Positions 4,467-33,399 of a stretch of DNA of 37,920 nt are shown piece after piece (positions within the stretch are counted from its first letter, which is position 1; each line of letters begins with the position of its first letter). The stretch comes from a virus. Its lineage: Duplodnaviria > Heunggongvirae > Uroviricota > Caudoviricetes. The position numbers were made by a program, and so were the translations under genes. The notes beneath the pieces were generated by a model, which saw nothing but the letters and a program-made list of their open reading frames with translations, was not told the origin of the DNA and searched no databases. The stretch lies in the IMG/VR virus record IMGVR_UViG_2737471826_000005; one strand, 5' to 3'.

Positions 4467-5347
4467 ACACTCCTCGTCAGTATTCTGGCGGCCATTGCAC
4501 TTAATCCCGGAGACATGCGGTTGAATGCTGTTCCGACGGCGTTAAGCTGCCCGGAAACGGTATCCAGAGCACCTGCAATATTTCTTTTGTCCACACCACT
4601 CAGCGCAGACTGTGCCTGCTGTACATACGTGGCTGCTTCGCTGGCTGTTCTGGCCAGACTGATGGCATCGGGCATGGATTCAGAGAGTGCGTTAAACGCC
4701 GGAACACTTTTCCCCAGAGCCCCGGAGATATTACCCAGTCCGCTCATCAGCCCCGGCACACGGGTCAGTGCGACAACGGGGTTATCCTTCATTTTCTGTG
4801 TCACCCGAACGGCGCTGATAGTGGTCTGGAGTACAGACTGCGCCTGTTTCGCATAGTTGACGCCGTTGCGGATGAACTGCGCCACCCCGGAAGGTGAAGG
4901 AATGGCACCGGAGACCGCCCCGACACCCGGGAGCTTCGTGCGTATTGCCGGTGGTTGCAGAGGATTTTTCGGGTCACCGGTGTATTCCCGGAGAGACACG
5001 GTGGCACTGACAGCCAGCACGTTGCCGGTACTGTCAGTCTGCTCGCTGGTTGCAGTCACATCGGTAATCACGAACCAGCCGCGATAGTCACCGTTGCCGA
5101 AGACCAGCGCCAGTGCCTGATGGGCTTTCATGGCTGTTCGCAGTCTCGCCAGCTCCACATCGGGTACACAATAATGCTGATGGAAAACCAGAGTTATCTG
5201 GATTTCGTCCAGCCTGTCGCCGACGAACTGCAGGCCAGGCTTACCCCCGATGCGGGCATGCTCCGCATAATCGACGCCGAACGTGGCCTCGAAGCCGTCC
5301 CAGTAGGTAATCAGCTCAAACTCAATATCACCCAGTACGGCAAACAT
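4463..5347 (-). CDS. tail protein, gpU-like N-domain with Ala/Ser/Gly-rich C-terminal extension
   Basis: 294 aa immediately downstream of tape measure; N-terminus MFAVLGDIEFELIT is gpU-like. Confidence 0.6.
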   Translation of the reverse strand: MFAVLGDIEFELITYWDGFEATFGVDYAEHARIGGKPGLQFVGDRLDEIQITLVFHQHYCVPDVELARLRTAMKAHQALALVFGNGDYRGWFVITDVTATSEQTDSTGNVLAVSATVSLREYTGDPKNPLQPPAIRTKLPGVGAVSGAIPSPSGVAQFIRNGVNYAKQAQSVLQTTISAVRVTQKMKDNPVVALTRVPGLMSGLGNISGALGKSVPAFNALSESMPDAISLARTASEAATYVQQAQSALSGVDKRNIAGALDTVSGQLNAVGTAFNRMSPGLSAMAARILTRSV

Positions 5348-8300
5348 CAGCGGTACTCCTTACGTTGTTTCTGAGCCAGCAGACGCTCCAGCATTTTTTC
5401 CAGCTCATGCAGACTCATATTCAGGGCACCAGTCAGTCCTGCAGGCGCTGTGGTTTCCCTGCCATTGAGGAAAAACTGAGGATTAAAGCTGACCTGGATA
5501 CCACCAGACGTTCCACCGCCGGTTGCAGCTGCACCACGGCCTGAATATCCGGCAGCCAGGATTTCAGGCGAGGGGATACGGGGAACATCCGGTGTCATCT
5601 CATTTGCCAGACGTTGCCCTGGTAAAATCGATGCCCGGGTGGAGAGCGGAATAACGGGCATGGAAGACAAACTATTGATTACGGCTCCGATCGCATTTTT
5701 AGCAGACGACATAAACCCATTGATATCGGGCAACGGCATACTGAAGCGAACACCTGAAGTGTTATCCCGTATTTCTGGCCCCTGAATGCTCACGGGCATT
5801 CTGGGGAGCAGTTCACTGGCCATTCGCTGCCCGGCCAGAGCTGCAAGCGGAGTGGTCCGCTGCAGGCCAATGGCGGCCCCCTGCGCGATATTGTCACCAA
5901 AGCCCATAAACACGCGGCTCGGCGAATGAATGCCCAGCTTTTCGCTGAACCAGCCACTGATGCTGTCACCCATTCCGGTTACACTGGATTTGAGCGACTC
6001 CCATTTGTTTTTGATACCGTTAATCAGACCGTCGACAAGATGGCCACCGAAGTCGGTGAACTTTGCCGGCAGATCAACACCAAGATATTTCAGCGCAGCT
6101 GCAAAGGCTTTATAGAGCAGACCTGCCGGCGACCAGTTAATCAGCAGCTTACCAGTTCCCGCGATACCGCCGTTAAAGGCTTCCTGAATGTCAGCCCAGC
6201 ACTGTTTAAACCAGCTACTGATGCTGTCACCCATTCCGGTTACACTGGATTTGAGCGACCCCCATTTGTTTTTGATACCGTTAATCAGACCGTCGATAAG
6301 ATGGCCACCGAAGTCGGTGAACTTTGCCGGCAGAGCAACGCCGAAATATTTCAGCGCAGCCGCAAAGGCTTTATAGAGCAGGCCTGCCGGCGACCAGTTA
6401 ATCAGCAACTTACCAATTCCCACAATGCCGCCGTTAAAGGCTTCCTGAATGTCAGCCCAGCGCTGTTTAAACCAGCTACTGATGCTGTCACCCATTCCGG
6501 TTACACTGGATTTGAGCGACCCCCATTTGCTTTTGATACCGTTAATCAGACCGTCGATAAGATGGCCACCGAAGTCGGTGAACTTTGCCGGCAGAGCAAC
6601 GCCGAAATATTTCAGCGCAGCCGCAAAGGCTTTATAGAGCAGGCCTGCCGGCGACCAGTTAATCAGCAACTTACCAATTCCCACAATGCCGCCGTTAAAG
6701 GCTTCCTGAATGTCAGCCCAGCGCTGTTTAAACCAACCACTGACAGCCCCCCAGTTGCGGTAGATAAGGTAAGCTGCTGTCGCGACAGCGGTGATAACGA
6801 GACCGATGGGATTCATCATCAGCGCTCGCCCAATCCAGAGAACGGCACGTGCAGCGCTCATAAAACCGCGAACGAGGCTGCCCGCCAGAACTTTGCTGAG
6901 TTTCAGTCCTCCGCTGGTCAGTCGGCTGAATCCAGTGACAAGCCAGCGTAATTTGCCACCTTCTCCGAGTGCGGTAGTCAGTCGATGCCAGTTGGTCCGG
7001 AGTAAAACAGTAGTTTTCCAGACGTTCACAAAGGGGGAAATAAGGAGATTCAGCCCCAGTTTGAGACCAATAGTCGCTATCTTAATCGCAAGGAGCGCAC
7101 TGATGAGCTTAAAAGCCCCACTGACAAATTGCGGGTGAGTCGCTACCCAGTGTTTTGTCCCCTGAATGAGTGGGAGCAGTTCCTGAGTCAGAGAAATAAA
7201 AGATGGAGCTAATTGATCGCCCAGCGTAATTGCCAGATCGCGACTGCTGACCATAAGTGTTTTAGTGGCTTCAAGGGGAGATTTCAGCCGCTGATCATAA
7301 GCACTGGCAAGCAAATCGTTATCCGCAGCCCTGAGAGCACCGGCACGGATCTCTCGATATCTGTCCATGTTGGCCAGCATCGGGCGGATAAATGCCATGA
7401 CCTGCATATCCGCGAACATATCGCCCAGACCAAAGTTTTTCGCCAGAGCCTGAAGTGCCTCATCTCTTGCCGTATCATTCTTTATTTTCATGGCTGATTT
7501 GAAGCCGGCCAGCGCTTCGGGGCTTTTGGCATTGAGGTAACGTTCTATAACACTCAACATCCCTTCAATCGGAGAGATCCCCGCAGCTTTATAACTCGCA
7601 ATAGATCCCTGCAAATCAATACCCAGATCAGCAAACTGTTTCTGAGTATCGCGGGCAAAAATTTTGGTAAGAAAGTTTTTAAAATTATTGGCTGCTTCGT
7701 CGGTGGAACCTGCACCGATTTTTGCTATCTGGAGACTGGCCCCGATTTCAGCAACAGCCTCTTTTCCACTGGCAAGACCCGCCATCATTGGGGCCAGGGA
7801 CTGCATCCACTTGACCTGATCCGGGATTTCAAATGACCCCTGGTCACCGGCATAAGCCATAATATTCTGAACGGCACCAAAATCTCTGGCCGCACCTTTC
7901 AGGGAGTTTTGCCAGACTGCGGCCACTTTTGCCCAGTCCTGAGCAGACGTGCGTGTTGCCGTTGCCGCGCGGGCAATATCCGGCATCAGAAAACCGATAT
8001 CTGACACATTATCAATATTGTCGCTGATGAGTGAACCCACCGCCTCCTGCAGCTCATCCTGATACTGATTGTATTTAAGCGCCCAGCCTTTTATCTGTCC
8101 GGCAAGTGCATCCCGCGTTTTATTGTCATATTTTGCGGTGATCGACATATCAATCATTTTGTCCTGAAAAGACATGGACTGCTGAACGGCAGGGGAAACC
8201 GTATGATAAACAGTCTGTGCCATGCCATACGCTTCAATCCCCTGACCATACAGCGCCATGCGGTTAGCTTTCAGCGCATCACTGGTAGCGGATGCCGCTG

Positions 8301-8559
8301 ACAGACGGCGCTGCTGGCGCTCAATTTGCTCCATGGTGCGGCTTACCCGCAGCAGCTCGCTGTTGAGATGCTGCATCCGGGAAGAACCCAGTTGACCATA
8401 ACGTTCTGTTGCACGGGTTAAAGCGTTCTGACGTTCCTGCAGGCGGCGTGAGGTATCGCTCAGGGAATCAAGCGCACGGCGGGTACCGCTCATTGCAGAA
8501 CGGAATGTGCTGCCAATCATCCCGCCGATAACAACGCCGACTGAAAACTGTCCCGACAT
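5347..8559 (-). CDS. tail tape measure protein
   Basis: 1070-aa ORF, GGAGG RBS, downstream of chaperone pair, internal 87-aa tandem repeats. Confidence 0.9.
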   Translation of the reverse strand: MSGQFSVGVVIGGMIGSTFRSAMSGTRRALDSLSDTSRRLQERQNALTRATERYGQLGSSRMQHLNSELLRVSRTMEQIERQQRRLSAASATSDALKANRMALYGQGIEAYGMAQTVYHTVSPAVQQSMSFQDKMIDMSITAKYDNKTRDALAGQIKGWALKYNQYQDELQEAVGSLISDNIDNVSDIGFLMPDIARAATATRTSAQDWAKVAAVWQNSLKGAARDFGAVQNIMAYAGDQGSFEIPDQVKWMQSLAPMMAGLASGKEAVAEIGASLQIAKIGAGSTDEAANNFKNFLTKIFARDTQKQFADLGIDLQGSIASYKAAGISPIEGMLSVIERYLNAKSPEALAGFKSAMKIKNDTARDEALQALAKNFGLGDMFADMQVMAFIRPMLANMDRYREIRAGALRAADNDLLASAYDQRLKSPLEATKTLMVSSRDLAITLGDQLAPSFISLTQELLPLIQGTKHWVATHPQFVSGAFKLISALLAIKIATIGLKLGLNLLISPFVNVWKTTVLLRTNWHRLTTALGEGGKLRWLVTGFSRLTSGGLKLSKVLAGSLVRGFMSAARAVLWIGRALMMNPIGLVITAVATAAYLIYRNWGAVSGWFKQRWADIQEAFNGGIVGIGKLLINWSPAGLLYKAFAAALKYFGVALPAKFTDFGGHLIDGLINGIKSKWGSLKSSVTGMGDSISSWFKQRWADIQEAFNGGIVGIGKLLINWSPAGLLYKAFAAALKYFGVALPAKFTDFGGHLIDGLINGIKNKWGSLKSSVTGMGDSISSWFKQCWADIQEAFNGGIAGTGKLLINWSPAGLLYKAFAAALKYLGVDLPAKFTDFGGHLVDGLINGIKNKWESLKSSVTGMGDSISGWFSEKLGIHSPSRVFMGFGDNIAQGAAIGLQRTTPLAALAGQRMASELLPRMPVSIQGPEIRDNTSGVRFSMPLPDINGFMSSAKNAIGAVINSLSSMPVIPLSTRASILPGQRLANEMTPDVPRIPSPEILAAGYSGRGAAATGGGTSGGIQVSFNPQFFLNGRETTAPAGLTGALNMSLHELEKMLERLLAQKQRKEYR
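5932..6735. repeat. three tandem copies of a 261-bp unit inside the tape measure gene
   Basis: Unit starts at 5950, 6211, 6472 (period 261); copies 2 and 3 nearly identical, copy 1 slightly diverged; degenerate fourth start at 6733. Confidence 0.9.
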
Positions 8560-8634
8560 AGTGGTTAACCTCCGGGGAAGGTGAAAAGACGTGAGGGGAT
8601 AACGCAGAACAGCCGCTACTGGCGGCTGTCTGTA

Positions 8635-8892
8635 CTATGATTTGTCGCCGTACTCGCTTTTGATTTGCTCTTCAGCCTGCTCCAGCCACATCTCCAGATC
8701 GTCAGTATCGAGGGCATCAATCTCCCCCGGCTGAAACCGGAACCATCTCGCCAGCAGCCCCTGCGCCTGCGTCAGCGCCCTGGTTGCTCTCACCCATCCC
8801 CGTGATGAGCTGAAATCGTTTCTGTAACTGCAGGTAATCAGCCAGATCCATATTGTCGAGATCTTCCGGGAGAAGACCAGTACTGCGGGCAA
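8635..8892 (-). CDS. C-terminal extension frame of tail assembly chaperone (E'-like), reached by programmed frameshift
   Basis: Overlapping ORF in +1 frame relative to 8717..9052, no ATG of its own, ends just before tape measure gene. Confidence 0.55.
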   Translation of the reverse strand: MPAVLVFSRKISTIWIWLITCSYRNDFSSSRGWVRATRALTQAQGLLARWFRFQPGEIDALDTDDLEMWLEQAEEQIKSEYGDKS

Positions 8893-9052
8893 TCAGCGGT
8901 TCGTCCCAGTCTGCCGGGTTTTTGCTGATTTTGCGCACCTGCTTCAGGTCTTTTACCGTCAGGCGTTTCAGTTCAACCAGCTCAATTCTGGTGCCTGCAG
9001 CAGTGGTGAAGGGATAAGACAATTTAAAAGTATCGGATGGGGTCTGTGACAT
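8717..9052 (-). CDS. tail assembly chaperone (P2 gpE / Mu gp41-like), short form
   Basis: 111-aa ORF immediately upstream of tape measure. Confidence 0.7.
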   Translation of the reverse strand: MSQTPSDTFKLSYPFTTAAGTRIELVELKRLTVKDLKQVRKISKNPADWDEPLIARSTGLLPEDLDNMDLADYLQLQKRFQLITGMGESNQGADAGAGAAGEMVPVSAGGD

Positions 9053-9149
9053 GATTGTGCTCCTGTGTAAGTTCAGGGCAGTATGTCGGGAGAAGCGCGT
9101 GACGGATATTAAAGGAGATTAAGAAGAAGGGGCCGGAGCCCCTGTGATG

Positions 9150-9431
9150 TCAGCAAGTGCGAAACCCCTTGCAGTTACGCAGGAAAGCGATGAGAAGCGT
9201 CTTTCCCTCAGATTTGCCGATGCCGGAGAACCAGTGGTCGGGAGGCTCCCATGCTTCAATCAAATCCGCCAGTTTGCGGGCCTTTGAACGTGTGCAGTCA
9301 ATCGGGTCATTGGTTTTACGGGTATTAAAAAGGGTTTCCACCCCCGGAATATCAAGGAGGGTAAACCACGTACCATTTGACATGCCCAGTGCCGCACATC
9401 GTCCTCCTTTATCCGTCAGTTCAACACTCAC
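9150..9431 (-). CDS. hypothetical protein (extra gene between tube and chaperone)
   Basis: 93-aa ORF starting 3 nt after tube stop; no homolog recognised. Confidence 0.45.
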   Translation of the reverse strand: MSVELTDKGGRCAALGMSNGTWFTLLDIPGVETLFNTRKTNDPIDCTRSKARKLADLIEAWEPPDHWFSGIGKSEGKTLLIAFLRNCKGFRTC

Positions 9432-9433
9432 CG

Positions 9434-9955
9434 TCAGCCCCCGATATTGATACGGTAGTCAGTCAGTTGATCAACACCGCCGACCCGGAAGATGTTGGCC
9501 AGATAGTCCAGTTGCAGCAGCTCTTCACCATCCAGTACCTGTCTGATATACGTGCAGGTGAAGCTACTGGAGAACTCGGCGTTCTCGTGCTGTTTGAACG
9601 TCCCCAGCGGGTTCTTCTTGAACATAATCGTCAGGAAGGTGACCAGCGGGATTTCGTCAATCAGCCCCTGCGAGCTGTAGCGCTGGACGCTGGAACGACA
9701 CTGCAGTGCCAGCGACCTGTACGGGTTCGCGGCAGACAGCATCGCATCGCGGTAAAAGCTGTTCCATTTGATTTCGCCTTCCAGCTTGTCAAAACCAGCC
9801 GGGAGTTCCACCTTACCCACCATCCCCAGCGCCTTGTGTTCCTGCATAATCATGGAGACATCGGGGAGTTTGACTTCCTCAGCCCGTCCCAGCAGGTTAG
9901 TACCATCCAGATAGATGTTGGCATTCGTGATGCGGTTTATCTCAATCTTTGACAT
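9434..9955 (-). CDS. tail tube protein
   Basis: 173 aa, ATGA overlap with sheath stop. Confidence 0.85.
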   Translation of the reverse strand: MSKIEINRITNANIYLDGTNLLGRAEEVKLPDVSMIMQEHKALGMVGKVELPAGFDKLEGEIKWNSFYRDAMLSAANPYRSLALQCRSSVQRYSSQGLIDEIPLVTFLTIMFKKNPLGTFKQHENAEFSSSFTCTYIRQVLDGEELLQLDYLANIFRVGGVDQLTDYRINIGG

Positions 9956-11382
9956 CAGTTGCCCCCTTTCAGGGTTAACAGGTATTCCGAGGTGATCTCA
10001 GTCTCAAACGTCAGTCGCTCCAGCGGCGGTGGTGGCGTATATTTGTAGCTCAGCAACAGGTGCCCGGCGGCCAGCTCCGTCTCCGGATTGCGGGCCGGAT
10101 CAAACCAGCAACGGAAGCCCAGTACCGCACCATCACCAGTCATTTTGCGACCGTAGGCGTTGACCGACTCCGTCAGTGCATCAATCAGCGCCTGAGTAAT
10201 CGGCATGTCGATGTACTGCTGGCTGAAATAACGAATGGACTCGTTGATCACATCACCGGTGCGGCGAACGTTCTCAAAGTTACGCATATGGGTGACCGTT
10301 GGCCATGCTGCCGTCCGGTTACCCCACAGACGAAGGCCGCTGCCGTAACTGCTGAATACCGTGGTGATCCCCTGTTCGTTAAGCAGGTTCACCTCACTCT
10401 GCGGGTCATCAATCATCGCGGACAGCTGGCGCTCCACGCCGGTGATCCCCAGAATCTCCTGATTGGAGGATGACCACCAGTAGCCCTTGTCCAGATCGAC
10501 TCTGGCACGCAGACCTGCTGCACGCTGGCTGAGCGGCTCCAGACGCTCTGTGTTTGTCACCGGGTCATATACCTTCACATGCGGATAGCACAGACGGACG
10601 CGGTCGGAGCTGGTATTGAAGTTGATGGTGCCTTCCGGGCCACGACCTGCCAGAGCCTGTGCAAAGGTGGTACCGACAGGCGCATCAATGTAGGTTACCG
10701 CGCCCAGCTTCTCTGCCATGGCGATAAGCTCAACTGCGACACTCTTCTGGGTGCAGAACACCGGCGCAATCAGAATTTTGGCGAAATAGCCGTACAGGTT
10801 GAAGCTGTCGTTAAGCAGCTTCATGCCGGTTCGGTTTCCGGCGCTGTTCACCCCGCCGATGATGTCCGCCGCAGTCACCTTCGACGGGTCCGCGTACTCA
10901 TAGCTCACCTTCACGCTGCCACCGGCCTCAATAGCCTTGCCCAGGTTCGTGAGCACACCCGCCTGCGCATCAACACGGTAGTCCGTGTTCGCCGTGTGGG
11001 TGGTGCTGCCTTCACTGTTTTTCACCACCACATTAGCGACAACCGGATGCGCCAGTCTGGCCTGCCCTGTCGATTTGTCAAAGGTAACCACCTCATCCTC
11101 GATCGCCGTTTTATGTTTCGCCGGGTCGAGGACGTTAATGACCAGAACGGTGCCTGCACCATGGTCATAAATCGCATCCAGCGCCTGCGGAATGGTAAAG
11201 CCGGTGAACTGGCTGCCAAATGCCGCTGCGTCTTTCTCAGACAGGCACTGTACCAGCGTATTGACATCCCCCATCGGGGCGGTACCAATCAGGCCAATAA
11301 CGGCAGATTTCACCGTTTTAACCGGGCGGGCACCGTTTTCCACCTCAATGGTTTCGGGACCATGCAGATAGTTAGCTGCCAT
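9955..11382 (-). CDS. tail sheath protein
   Basis: 475-aa ORF preceding tube gene. Confidence 0.9.
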   Translation of the reverse strand: MAANYLHGPETIEVENGARPVKTVKSAVIGLIGTAPMGDVNTLVQCLSEKDAAAFGSQFTGFTIPQALDAIYDHGAGTVLVINVLDPAKHKTAIEDEVVTFDKSTGQARLAHPVVANVVVKNSEGSTTHTANTDYRVDAQAGVLTNLGKAIEAGGSVKVSYEYADPSKVTAADIIGGVNSAGNRTGMKLLNDSFNLYGYFAKILIAPVFCTQKSVAVELIAMAEKLGAVTYIDAPVGTTFAQALAGRGPEGTINFNTSSDRVRLCYPHVKVYDPVTNTERLEPLSQRAAGLRARVDLDKGYWWSSSNQEILGITGVERQLSAMIDDPQSEVNLLNEQGITTVFSSYGSGLRLWGNRTAAWPTVTHMRNFENVRRTGDVINESIRYFSQQYIDMPITQALIDALTESVNAYGRKMTGDGAVLGFRCWFDPARNPETELAAGHLLLSYKYTPPPPLERLTFETEITSEYLLTLKGGN

Positions 11383-22018: not shown

Positions 22019-22369
22019 TTAAAGCCCCATCGCAACAGCCAGACAGACCGCTGCAACAATCAGTGCACGGCGGATTAACGCAGCAGAAAACACCAGGTGA
22101 AGGCCGGTCTGTACCGGGAAACGCCCATCAGCCATCAGCCTGTCGTCATGTTTCAGGTACTGACCGGGACGGGCTTTGGGGAAGAGCGAACGGTCAAGCC
22201 AGTAACCCAGCACTGCTGCCAGCGTGATGAGTGCCAGCTTGTAGATCACAACAGGCAACTGCTGTGGCGAGACCAGAGCGATGGTGCCCAGCAACAGCAC
22301 TGAGGTCAGCAGCCAGCCGCTGAGGCGAGGTTTTTTAACAGGGGGAATGAATTTTTTCAGGTTTTTCAT
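22019..22369 (-). CDS. holin-like membrane protein (three predicted TM segments)
   Basis: First gene of leftward late operon, AAGGAGA RBS before ATG at 22369. Confidence 0.5.
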   Translation of the reverse strand: MKNLKKFIPPVKKPRLSGWLLTSVLLLGTIALVSPQQLPVVIYKLALITLAAVLGYWLDRSLFPKARPGQYLKHDDRLMADGRFPVQTGLHLVFSAALIRRALIVAAVCLAVAMGL

Positions 22370-32587: not shown

Positions 32588-33029
32588 ACAACGTCTTATC
32601 CAGCTCATTCATATTGCCCGTAATGAACTGGGTATGGATGAAGACACCTACCGCCAGATGTTACAGGGGCTGACCGGTAAAGCCTCAACCAAAGGAATGG
32701 ATACCACACAACTAAACTGCGTGCTGGAATCCATGAAAAGGAAAGGCTTTCGCGTTAAGCCTGCCGGAAAAGCCAGCTCCGGTTTACCGCTGGATAACCA
32801 TCCGCAGTCCAGGAAAATCCGTGCGCTATGGCTTGAAATGGCTGCTGCCGGCATTGTTCGTGACCGTTCAGAAAATGCATTAGCGCGGTGGATCAAGCGG
32901 GAAACGGGCATCAGCGCCCTGCGCTGGCTCAGTACTGAACAGGCAAGCAGTGTTATTGAGAAACTGAAGAAGTGGCAGCGCAGAGCTGCGGGAGTCAAAC
33001 ATGAGCGACCTGAATCAGTTTCGAAGTAA
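32577..33029 (+). CDS. GemA-like protein (Mu gp16 family)
   Basis: Position immediately upstream of mor; RLIQLIHIARNELGMDEDTYRQ motif. Confidence 0.65.
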   Translation: MMTKQRLIQLIHIARNELGMDEDTYRQMLQGLTGKASTKGMDTTQLNCVLESMKRKGFRVKPAGKASSGLPLDNHPQSRKIRALWLEMAAAGIVRDRSENALARWIKRETGISALRWLSTEQASSVIEKLKKWQRRAAGVKHERPESVSK

Positions 33030-33399
33030 AGGGCCGGAACTCCTGGTGGAGCTGGCACAGCATACCTCTGAGACCGTTCGCGAGATTATTGATATTGAGC
33101 CCGCAATTGCCGACCAGATTGGTCAGGCCGTCGCGAACCGAATGATGCAGGTCTGGGGCGGGCAAAACGTTTATTTCCCGATGGGCATGGTATGGAAGGT
33201 CAGTCAGCGCGACCGGGAAATCTTCAGGGAGTTTAACGGACGCAACCACCACGAACTGGCCCGCAAGTTTGGTGTTTCGCTTCAGTGGGTCTACAGCGTG
33301 GTTAAGCGGGTCAGAAAAGAAGAACTGGATCGGATGCAGGGCAGGTTGTTTGATGAAGATCTGCCAGAGGAGACGAAAGACGTTAACAAATCCAGATAA
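33001..33399 (+). CDS. mor: Mor/C-family transcription activator
   Basis: C-terminal FNGRNHHELARKFGVSLQWVYSVVKRVRK matches Mu Mor NDFNGRNVSELTTRYGVTFNTVYKAIRRMRR. Confidence 0.85.
   Translation: MSDLNQFRSKGPELLVELAQHTSETVREIIDIEPAIADQIGQAVANRMMQVWGGQNVYFPMGMVWKVSQRDREIFREFNGRNHHELARKFGVSLQWVYSVVKRVRKEELDRMQGRLFDEDLPEETKDVNKSR

Follow-up and report, generated by a model that had tools for sequence, protein, structure and literature searches.

The closest described relatives of the gene analyzed here are gene 22 of phage Sf6, HkaH of HK620, and gp27 of HK75. These proteins of 93-99 amino acids belong to the same family as its product and share with it the elements NGTWF, TNDP, W-PP-W, and C-x-GF-T. 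To our knowledge, no member of this family, DUF7739/PHROG 1239, has a known function. The Sf6, HK620, and HK75 genes are among the accessory genes of the early-left (PL) region in P22-like and lambdoid phages, whereas the gene described below would be the final cistron of a late unit encoding sheath and tube in a transposable BcepMu-like phage. Small cargo genes at the ends of late units are represented by the morons of phages lambda and HK97 and by Z/fun of phage P2, which is located between G and FI. The late units of phage Mu (Plys, PI, PP, and Pmom) are driven by activators of the Mor/C family. We consider it fairly probable that the gene is genuine cargo, dispensable to the phage, that it belongs to the Sf6 gene 22/HkaH family, and that it forms the last cistron of the first late unit ahead of an older terminator; its product may bind a host or competitor protein.

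The window, i.e. the whole stretch of 37,920 nucleotides that was analyzed, is a BcepMu-like transposable prophage combining a head and early region of the Mu type (GemA, Mor) with a P2-type tail. Escherichia phage PhiKM, a phage assigned to Bcepmuvirus, shares 99.8% identity with the region, and Klebsiella phage KP12 shares 88%. The 93-aa open reading frame (ORF) is labelled 'hypothetical protein' in both records. The tail genes surrounding this ORF are all located on the minus strand, with the following features in the order of transcription.

9955-11382, minus strand: tail sheath gene.
9434-9955, minus strand: tail tube gene of the P2 FII type (Pfam Phage_tube, E = 3e-53).
9150-9431, minus strand: 93-aa putative cargo gene of the Sf6 gene 22/HK620 HkaH family (PHROG 1239; divergent DUF7739).
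9128-9143, minus strand: GC-rich hairpin AGGGGC-UCCG-GCCCCU, detected by the terminator scan.
9115-9127, minus strand: U-rich tract UCUUCUUAAUCUC, the 3' part of which overlaps the upstream half of a promoter-like motif.
8717-9052, minus strand: tail assembly chaperone gene of the P2 E type (Phage_TAC_7, E = 5e-21).
8635-8892, minus strand: putative P2 E'-like frameshift extension of the chaperone (weak match to P2 GpE, E = 0.022).
5347-8559, minus strand: tape-measure gene (1070 aa).

The chaperone gene, which starts at position 9052, is the first gene downstream from the hairpin and the promoter-like motif. The chaperone frame (8717-9052) and the overlapping downstream frame (8635-8892) are consistent with the programmed frameshift (E/E+E') that is usual in P2-type tails. 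A second stable hairpin, CAGACAGCCGC-CAGUA-GCGGCUGUUCUG (8605-8632, minus strand, -18 kcal/mol), is located between the stop codon of the frameshift extension and the start of the tape-measure gene, and its U-tract is poor. The tape-measure gene itself contains 3.0 copies of a 261-bp unit at 96% identity (5948-6743, minus strand), which specify three 87-aa repeats. This gene is interrupted by a sequencing gap in the PhiKM record, and the tape-measure gene of KP12 is shorter (2466 nt). The copy number of the repeat may vary, and such variation could alter tail length.

A first-pass annotation, made from the letters of the sequence, had placed a 93-aa gene 3 nt after the tube stop codon, between the tube and chaperone genes. 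This gene call was borne out (9150-9431, minus strand, GTG start). The GTG codon at position 9431 lies two bases past the TGA stop codon of the tube gene (9436-9434), and the C-terminal glycine codons of the tube provide a G-rich stretch ahead of it. The translated ORF matched PHROG 1239 (function unknown) over its full length (residues 1-93 to profile positions 1-96, E = 4.7e-48) and gp22 of Shigella phage Sf6, also over the full length (43% identity, E = 3e-24). The Pfam search returned only a sub-threshold match to DUF7739 (24.7 bits, just below the gathering score of 27 bits). A relative of Sf6 gp22 matched DUF7739 with a score of 72 bits (5e-20), thus tying the ORF to this family. None of the PADLOC and NCBIfam models matched the ORF at an E value of 1 or better. 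Nothing relevant was found in the literature on the DUF7739/PHROG 1239 family, and a paper on tail-assembly interference by Tai and Ati (PMC11364771) concerns other phages and other genes.

A scan of a library of 1.8 billion representative proteins returned 73 homologues of the ORF, most of which were 90-100 aa long and aligned from residue 1. Conservation of MxVE at the N-terminus of the homologues supports the GTG start. All the residues conserved in the family according to a 46-sequence alignment (N19, W67, F83, C87, G89, and F90), together with the NGTWF and TNDP motifs, were present in the ORF protein. Purifying selection acts on the 93-aa ORF, which is a genuine gene: its median dN/dS was 0.116 for 45 orthologue pairs located in the tail slot, with values of 0.033 for the tube and 0.215 for the chaperone. 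The other ORFs overlapping positions 9119-9450 on either strand had no support and were taken as spurious.

Residues 9-47 of the ORF protein (stretch NGTWFTLLDIPGVETL) match a 16-residue motif, NGTWxTAIEVPGTKxL, which occurs in five to seven copies in long proteins, including one with an NlpC/P60 domain. Long actinobacterial repeat proteins (P0042, P0066, and P0075) were considered as domain homologues and rejected, the match looking like a coincidence of the 16-residue motif (NGTWxTxxxxPG). Two family members, P0048 and P0081, were called as fusions (DUF2737 and DUF7739, 153 aa; a DUF7739-like N-terminus and a YopX C-terminus, 187 aa). In Sf6, DUF2737 likewise lies directly upstream of the homologue, and in HK75 it is found two genes upstream. 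The fusion and the adjacency hint that DUF2737 and DUF7739 may form a functional pair.

In order to survey the slot between the tube and chaperone genes, the gap between them was measured in 80 IMG/VR loci encoding tube proteins 91-100% identical to that of the window. The slot (loci designated by L numbers) was occupied as follows.

Gap of about 385 nt, ORF present: most of the 80 loci.
Gap of about 668 nt, ORF and an added Phage_gp49_66 gene ahead of it: 11 loci.
Gap of 91-132 nt, no gene: eight loci (L058, L070, L073, L074, L075, L078, L079, and L086).
Unrelated 66-aa orphan ORF with a strong hairpin of its own: L084 (4523-4723).
In-frame internal deletion of the ORF: L069.
Frameshifted copies of the ORF: L007, L009, L030, and L077.

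Some of the frameshifted copies may be due to sequencing errors in G-runs. The added slot gene encodes a protein of 97-99 aa belonging to the N4 gp49/Sf6 gene 66 family (PF13876, E = 5e-12). It was found at about 4519-4818 in L035, L040, L043, L047, L052, L056, L057, L062, L064, and L072, and is frameshifted in L040. No gene was present at the slot in BcepMu, the type phage of the group, in which the gap is 121 bp, or in Ralstonia phage YO107_2. A Pseudomonas relative (L088, 3016-3410) had a 384-bp gap containing different small ORFs, including one of 63 aa on the opposite strand. In complete E. coli genomes, the ORF was detected at 687 places for 704 places of the tube gene, indicating that it has nearly reached fixation in the prophage lineage; its carriers accounted for 629 of the 5,426 genomes (about 12%). 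Near-fixation in E. coli is also compatible with a useful, lineage-specific role in the virion.

The absence of the ORF from relatives whose tube is 94-96% identical, and from the plaque-forming phage BcepMu, indicates that it is dispensable for tail building. The ORF was not conserved in all related tail modules, as a structural or assembly component of the tail would be (the tube is 91-96% identical in the eight loci with an empty slot), and it was present or absent at the same site among close relatives, as morons are. As judged from this comparison of loci, the ORF is optional cargo and not a part of the tail. The initial proposal of a moron-like accessory gene was thus supported by presence and absence among near-identical tail modules, with a slot that is empty, occupied by the ORF with or without the gp49/66 gene, occupied by another ORF, or decayed, by the lack of the gene in BcepMu and in the Ralstonia relative, and by the early accessory location of homologues.

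This location was established by tblastn searches of phage records, in which matches were found at 39-54% identity. In Sf6 (gene 22) and HK75 (gp27), the homologue follows abc2 in the early-left operon, among genes encoding Lar-like, Ea22-like, and DUF2737 proteins. The match in CUS-3 lay under hkaH and a neighboring hypothetical gene, and the homologue of Edwardsiella phage EPP-1 was located in the early region. Homologues were also carried by SSU5-like phage-plasmids of 92-100 kb. In Yersinia phage fHe-Yen8-01, the homologue (gp123, 39% identity) is labelled 'particle associated protein' in GenBank, as are the products of the adjacent genes. On the evidence of these contexts, the DUF7739 family is mobile among unrelated phage types. 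The second slot gene also belongs to a family named after a gene of a P22-like phage (Sf6 gene 66), indicating that small genes are traded between the slot and other temperate phages of enterobacteria.

The label of the Yersinia homologue raised the possibility that the ORF protein is associated with the virion, as a minor tail protein or as cargo packaged in the particles, perhaps for delivery to the next host. Such a role would explain why the protein is encoded and expressed alongside the sheath and the tube. It would also fit with the location of the ORF inside the tail module, coupled to the tube gene and devoid of a promoter of its own, and with its near-fixation in the E. coli lineage of the prophage. 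However, the ORF is absent from BcepMu and from relatives with nearly the same tube, the Sf6 and HK75 homologues are early-left-operon genes in the company of abc2 and of Lar-like and Ea22-like genes rather than virion genes, and the literature search for fHe-Yen8-01 found no paper on which the GenBank label rests. We consider that association with the virion is unlikely. A proposal that appears quite unlikely is that DUF7739 proteins are uncharacterised inhibitors acting in counter-defence or host takeover and needed at the very start of infection, at which time they would be supplied by early transcription from PL or by the virion. P22-like and lambdoid phages would rely on PL, and BcepMu-like and SSU5-like phages would produce the protein late, load it into the virion, and deliver it with the DNA, in a manner resembling that of P1 Dar or T4 IPI*. 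If true, this proposal would reconcile the position of the ORF in a late tail operon with the 'particle associated' homologue of the Yersinia phage.

According to the reading that we favor, the product of the cargo gene would bind and block a host or competitor protein, thereby contributing to host takeover or counter-defence and not to tail building. This role, which we regard with low confidence as the most likely one, is preferred because the neighbors of the homologues are abc2, Lar-like, and Ea22-like genes. The ORF protein is predicted to be a soluble 10-kDa alpha/beta domain devoid of any catalytic signature, and no signal peptide or membrane segment was detected in its sequence. AlphaFold2, used with the family alignment, produced a confident single-domain model (pLDDT 93.3, pTM 0.84), in which the elements are predicted in the order strand, strand, helix, loop, helix, helix, and strand. 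The profile and structure searches that had been suggested for the 93-aa protein returned the full-length PHROG 1239 match described above and no significant structural match, whether by Foldseek comparison of the model with the PDB and BFVD or by a profile search of PDB sequences, which gave nothing at an E value of 1 or better. The modelled fold weakly resembles those of small inhibitor and immunity proteins. The similarity detected by Foldseek to DMP12, a DNA mimic from Neisseria (PDB 3w1o), and to a CdiI immunity protein (5j4a_D) was not significant, and sequence identity to the ORF protein was only 7-8%. The ORF protein has a pI of 8.4 and a net charge of +2; members of the tail-slot clade are near-neutral or basic (pI 7.7-8.4), whereas most of the family is acidic. 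Since pI values span 4.05 to 9.7 in the family, no charge-based mechanism is conserved. DNA mimicry was ruled out on the basis of charge, the ORF protein not being acidic.

The first-pass annotation had also reported a GC hairpin and a U-rich tract downstream from the ORF, and both were recovered by the terminator scan. The hairpin (9143-9128) starts six bases past the stop codon of the ORF, comprises six pairs, including five G-C pairs, and a 4-nt loop, has a predicted energy of -12.8 kcal/mol, and is followed by the tail UCUUCUUAAU. The U-tract is interrupted (UCUUCUU), and termination may therefore be weak. An Rfam scan of the whole window returned nothing. In relatives lacking the ORF, a hairpin and a T-run were found at the same site, directly after the tube stop codon and before the same downstream sequence. 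The following stems were found in relatives.

GGGGGCC-GCAA-GGCUCCC: loci L058 and L074.
GGGAGC-CUUACC-GCUCCC: locus L070.
GAGGGGCC-UGGU-GGCCCCUU: locus L078.
GGCCCGC-UUCG-GCGGGCC: BcepMu.
GGCCCAC-UUCG-GUGGGC: Ralstonia relative.
UUCGGGGC-UACG-GCCCCGAA: ECO95 1-6-1.

The hairpins of the relatives fold at -9 to -24 kcal/mol, and the hairpin was absent only from L079 and L086. At least seven distinct stem sequences occupy the same position, each forming a hairpin followed by a T-run. Compensating changes in the stems indicate that the structure is under selection, as expected for an intrinsic terminator closing the tube gene. A GC-rich stem-loop followed by a U-rich tract, with conservation of structure rather than of sequence in the relatives, is characteristic of intrinsic terminators, and the hairpin looks like a conserved terminator of this type located after the tube gene. 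Its presence together with the T-tract in relatives lacking the ORF indicates that the element belongs to the tube-chaperone boundary and predates the ORF. The comparison therefore did not reveal a moron that had brought in its own terminator, and the initial description of the hairpin as belonging to the ORF had to be abandoned: on the comparative evidence, the cargo gene is inserted upstream of a pre-existing terminator-like hairpin.

No sigma-70-like promoter was found upstream of the ORF or near it. At the level of sequence, the ORF therefore does not have the promoter that a moron would carry and is not a self-contained cassette consisting of a promoter, a gene, and a terminator. The intergenic DNA that follows the hairpin was more conserved than the surrounding coding DNA and contained two conserved blocks, CTTTAATATC and GACATACTGC, separated by a variable spacer. 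The motif TTAA-N5-TTTAATAT-N21-ATACT was found three times in the window, for 0.02 expected occurrences (with up to three mismatches), and the form TTAA-N5-TTTAAWAT-N21-ATRCT covers all three copies. These are all intergenic, located on the minus strand, and ahead of late genes. Their positions and that of the candidate factor are as follows.

22437-22395, minus strand: motif copy 1, before the first late gene, encoding the holin (ATG at 22367).
9122-9080, minus strand: motif copy 2, before the chaperone and tape-measure genes.
2492-2450, minus strand: motif copy 3, between the baseplate V-type and gp25/W-type genes.
33001-33399, plus strand: Mor-family late transcription activator, candidate factor for the three motifs.

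The copy preceding the chaperone gene was exact in 74 related loci, whether or not these contained the ORF, and the baseplate copy (V-/W-type) was also present in KP12. The motif consists of an upstream repeat centered near -42 and a -10-like element, ATACT, and has no -35 element. The three copies are probably Mor-dependent late promoters; nothing relevant was found in the literature on late promoters of BcepMu. Only 6 nt separate the end of the baseplate copy from the ATG codon of the gp25-type gene; this spacing is unexpected for a promoter, and the motif may have another role. This copy also overlaps a hairpin, GGGGGCA-AUAC-UGCCCCC. On this reading, the late region would be composed of three units, the first of which would be closed by the hairpin and would contain the ORF as its last cistron. 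The location of a promoter-like motif directly after the hairpin implies that expression of the chaperone and tape-measure genes may require re-initiation in addition to read-through. The idea put forward at first that the hairpin attenuates expression of these two genes was therefore retained in part: the terminator-like hairpin is conserved, but the promoter-like motif downstream may restart their transcription.

The ORF could alternatively be a classical moron, i.e. a lysogenic-conversion or superinfection-exclusion gene flanked by its own promoter and terminator and expressed from the repressed prophage. Presence or absence at a fixed slot, mobility between unrelated phage types, and the terminator-like hairpin located immediately downstream from the ORF would be expected in such a case, as would the GC3 of the ORF (0.54), which differs from that of the sheath and tube genes (0.68-0.71). 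The same GC3 value is however found for the downstream chaperone and tape-measure genes (0.54-0.56), the hairpin was part of the locus before the ORF and was not imported with it, and the start codon lies next to the tube stop codon with no sigma-70-like promoter upstream. In addition, many exclusion proteins carry a signal peptide or a membrane segment, whereas the ORF protein carries neither. We regard a classical moron as very unlikely. Finally, a lineage-specific helper of tail assembly that is beneficial but non-essential, such as an extra chaperone for the tube or the tape measure, is highly improbable since the location between the tube and chaperone genes and a very weak match to the tail assembly chaperone family phrog_1442 (E = 0.41) are outweighed by the lack of significance of this match, by the occurrence of homologues among the early genes of podoviruses and siphoviruses, which have no contractile tail, and by the unrelated cargo genes housed by the same slot in relatives.

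Returning to the late cargo gene that we favor, we infer from the sequence late expression, activity of the terminator and of the promoters, and an inhibitor function, which could be combined as follows. An enterobacterial BcepMu-like prophage would have acquired the gene at a site flanked by the tube stop codon and by an intrinsic terminator that was already there. This terminator would close the first late unit, which extends from the holin to the tube gene. The lack of a promoter of its own and the GTG codon located two bases past the tube stop codon suggest that the ORF is expressed late and by translational coupling, as the final cistron on the abundant message for sheath and tube. The hairpin would end or attenuate this message, and transcription of the chaperone, tape-measure, and baseplate genes would probably be restarted from the Mor-dependent late promoter located just downstream.

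The ORF resembles morons in being optional among near-identical genomes, in its fixed junction by a terminator, and in its exchange among unrelated phages. It differs from them in lacking its own promoter and in that the adjacent terminator appears to be that of the operon, of which the ORF would be a passenger. The tube-chaperone junction of BcepMu-like prophages is a cargo slot with which P22-like, lambdoid, and SSU5-like phages exchange small genes, and the DUF7739 family and its slot-mates are reasonable candidates for counter-defence screens. As in Mu, a Mor-family activator is encoded, and copies of a motif consisting of an upstream repeat and a -10-like element with no -35 element, three in the window, precede the lysis, tail, and baseplate blocks. 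Unlike the situation in Mu, the predicted motif sequence is specific to the BcepMu-like group, and one copy is located 6 nt from a start codon. The three promoter-like motifs and the putative terminator provide a testable map of late transcription for this group of phages. Our understanding of such phages is unchanged by this routine mosaic accessory content. In comparison with known systems, the gene represents a new context for a known protein family with no assigned function, and it occupies an ordinary mosaic accessory slot rather than adding a new component to the tail.
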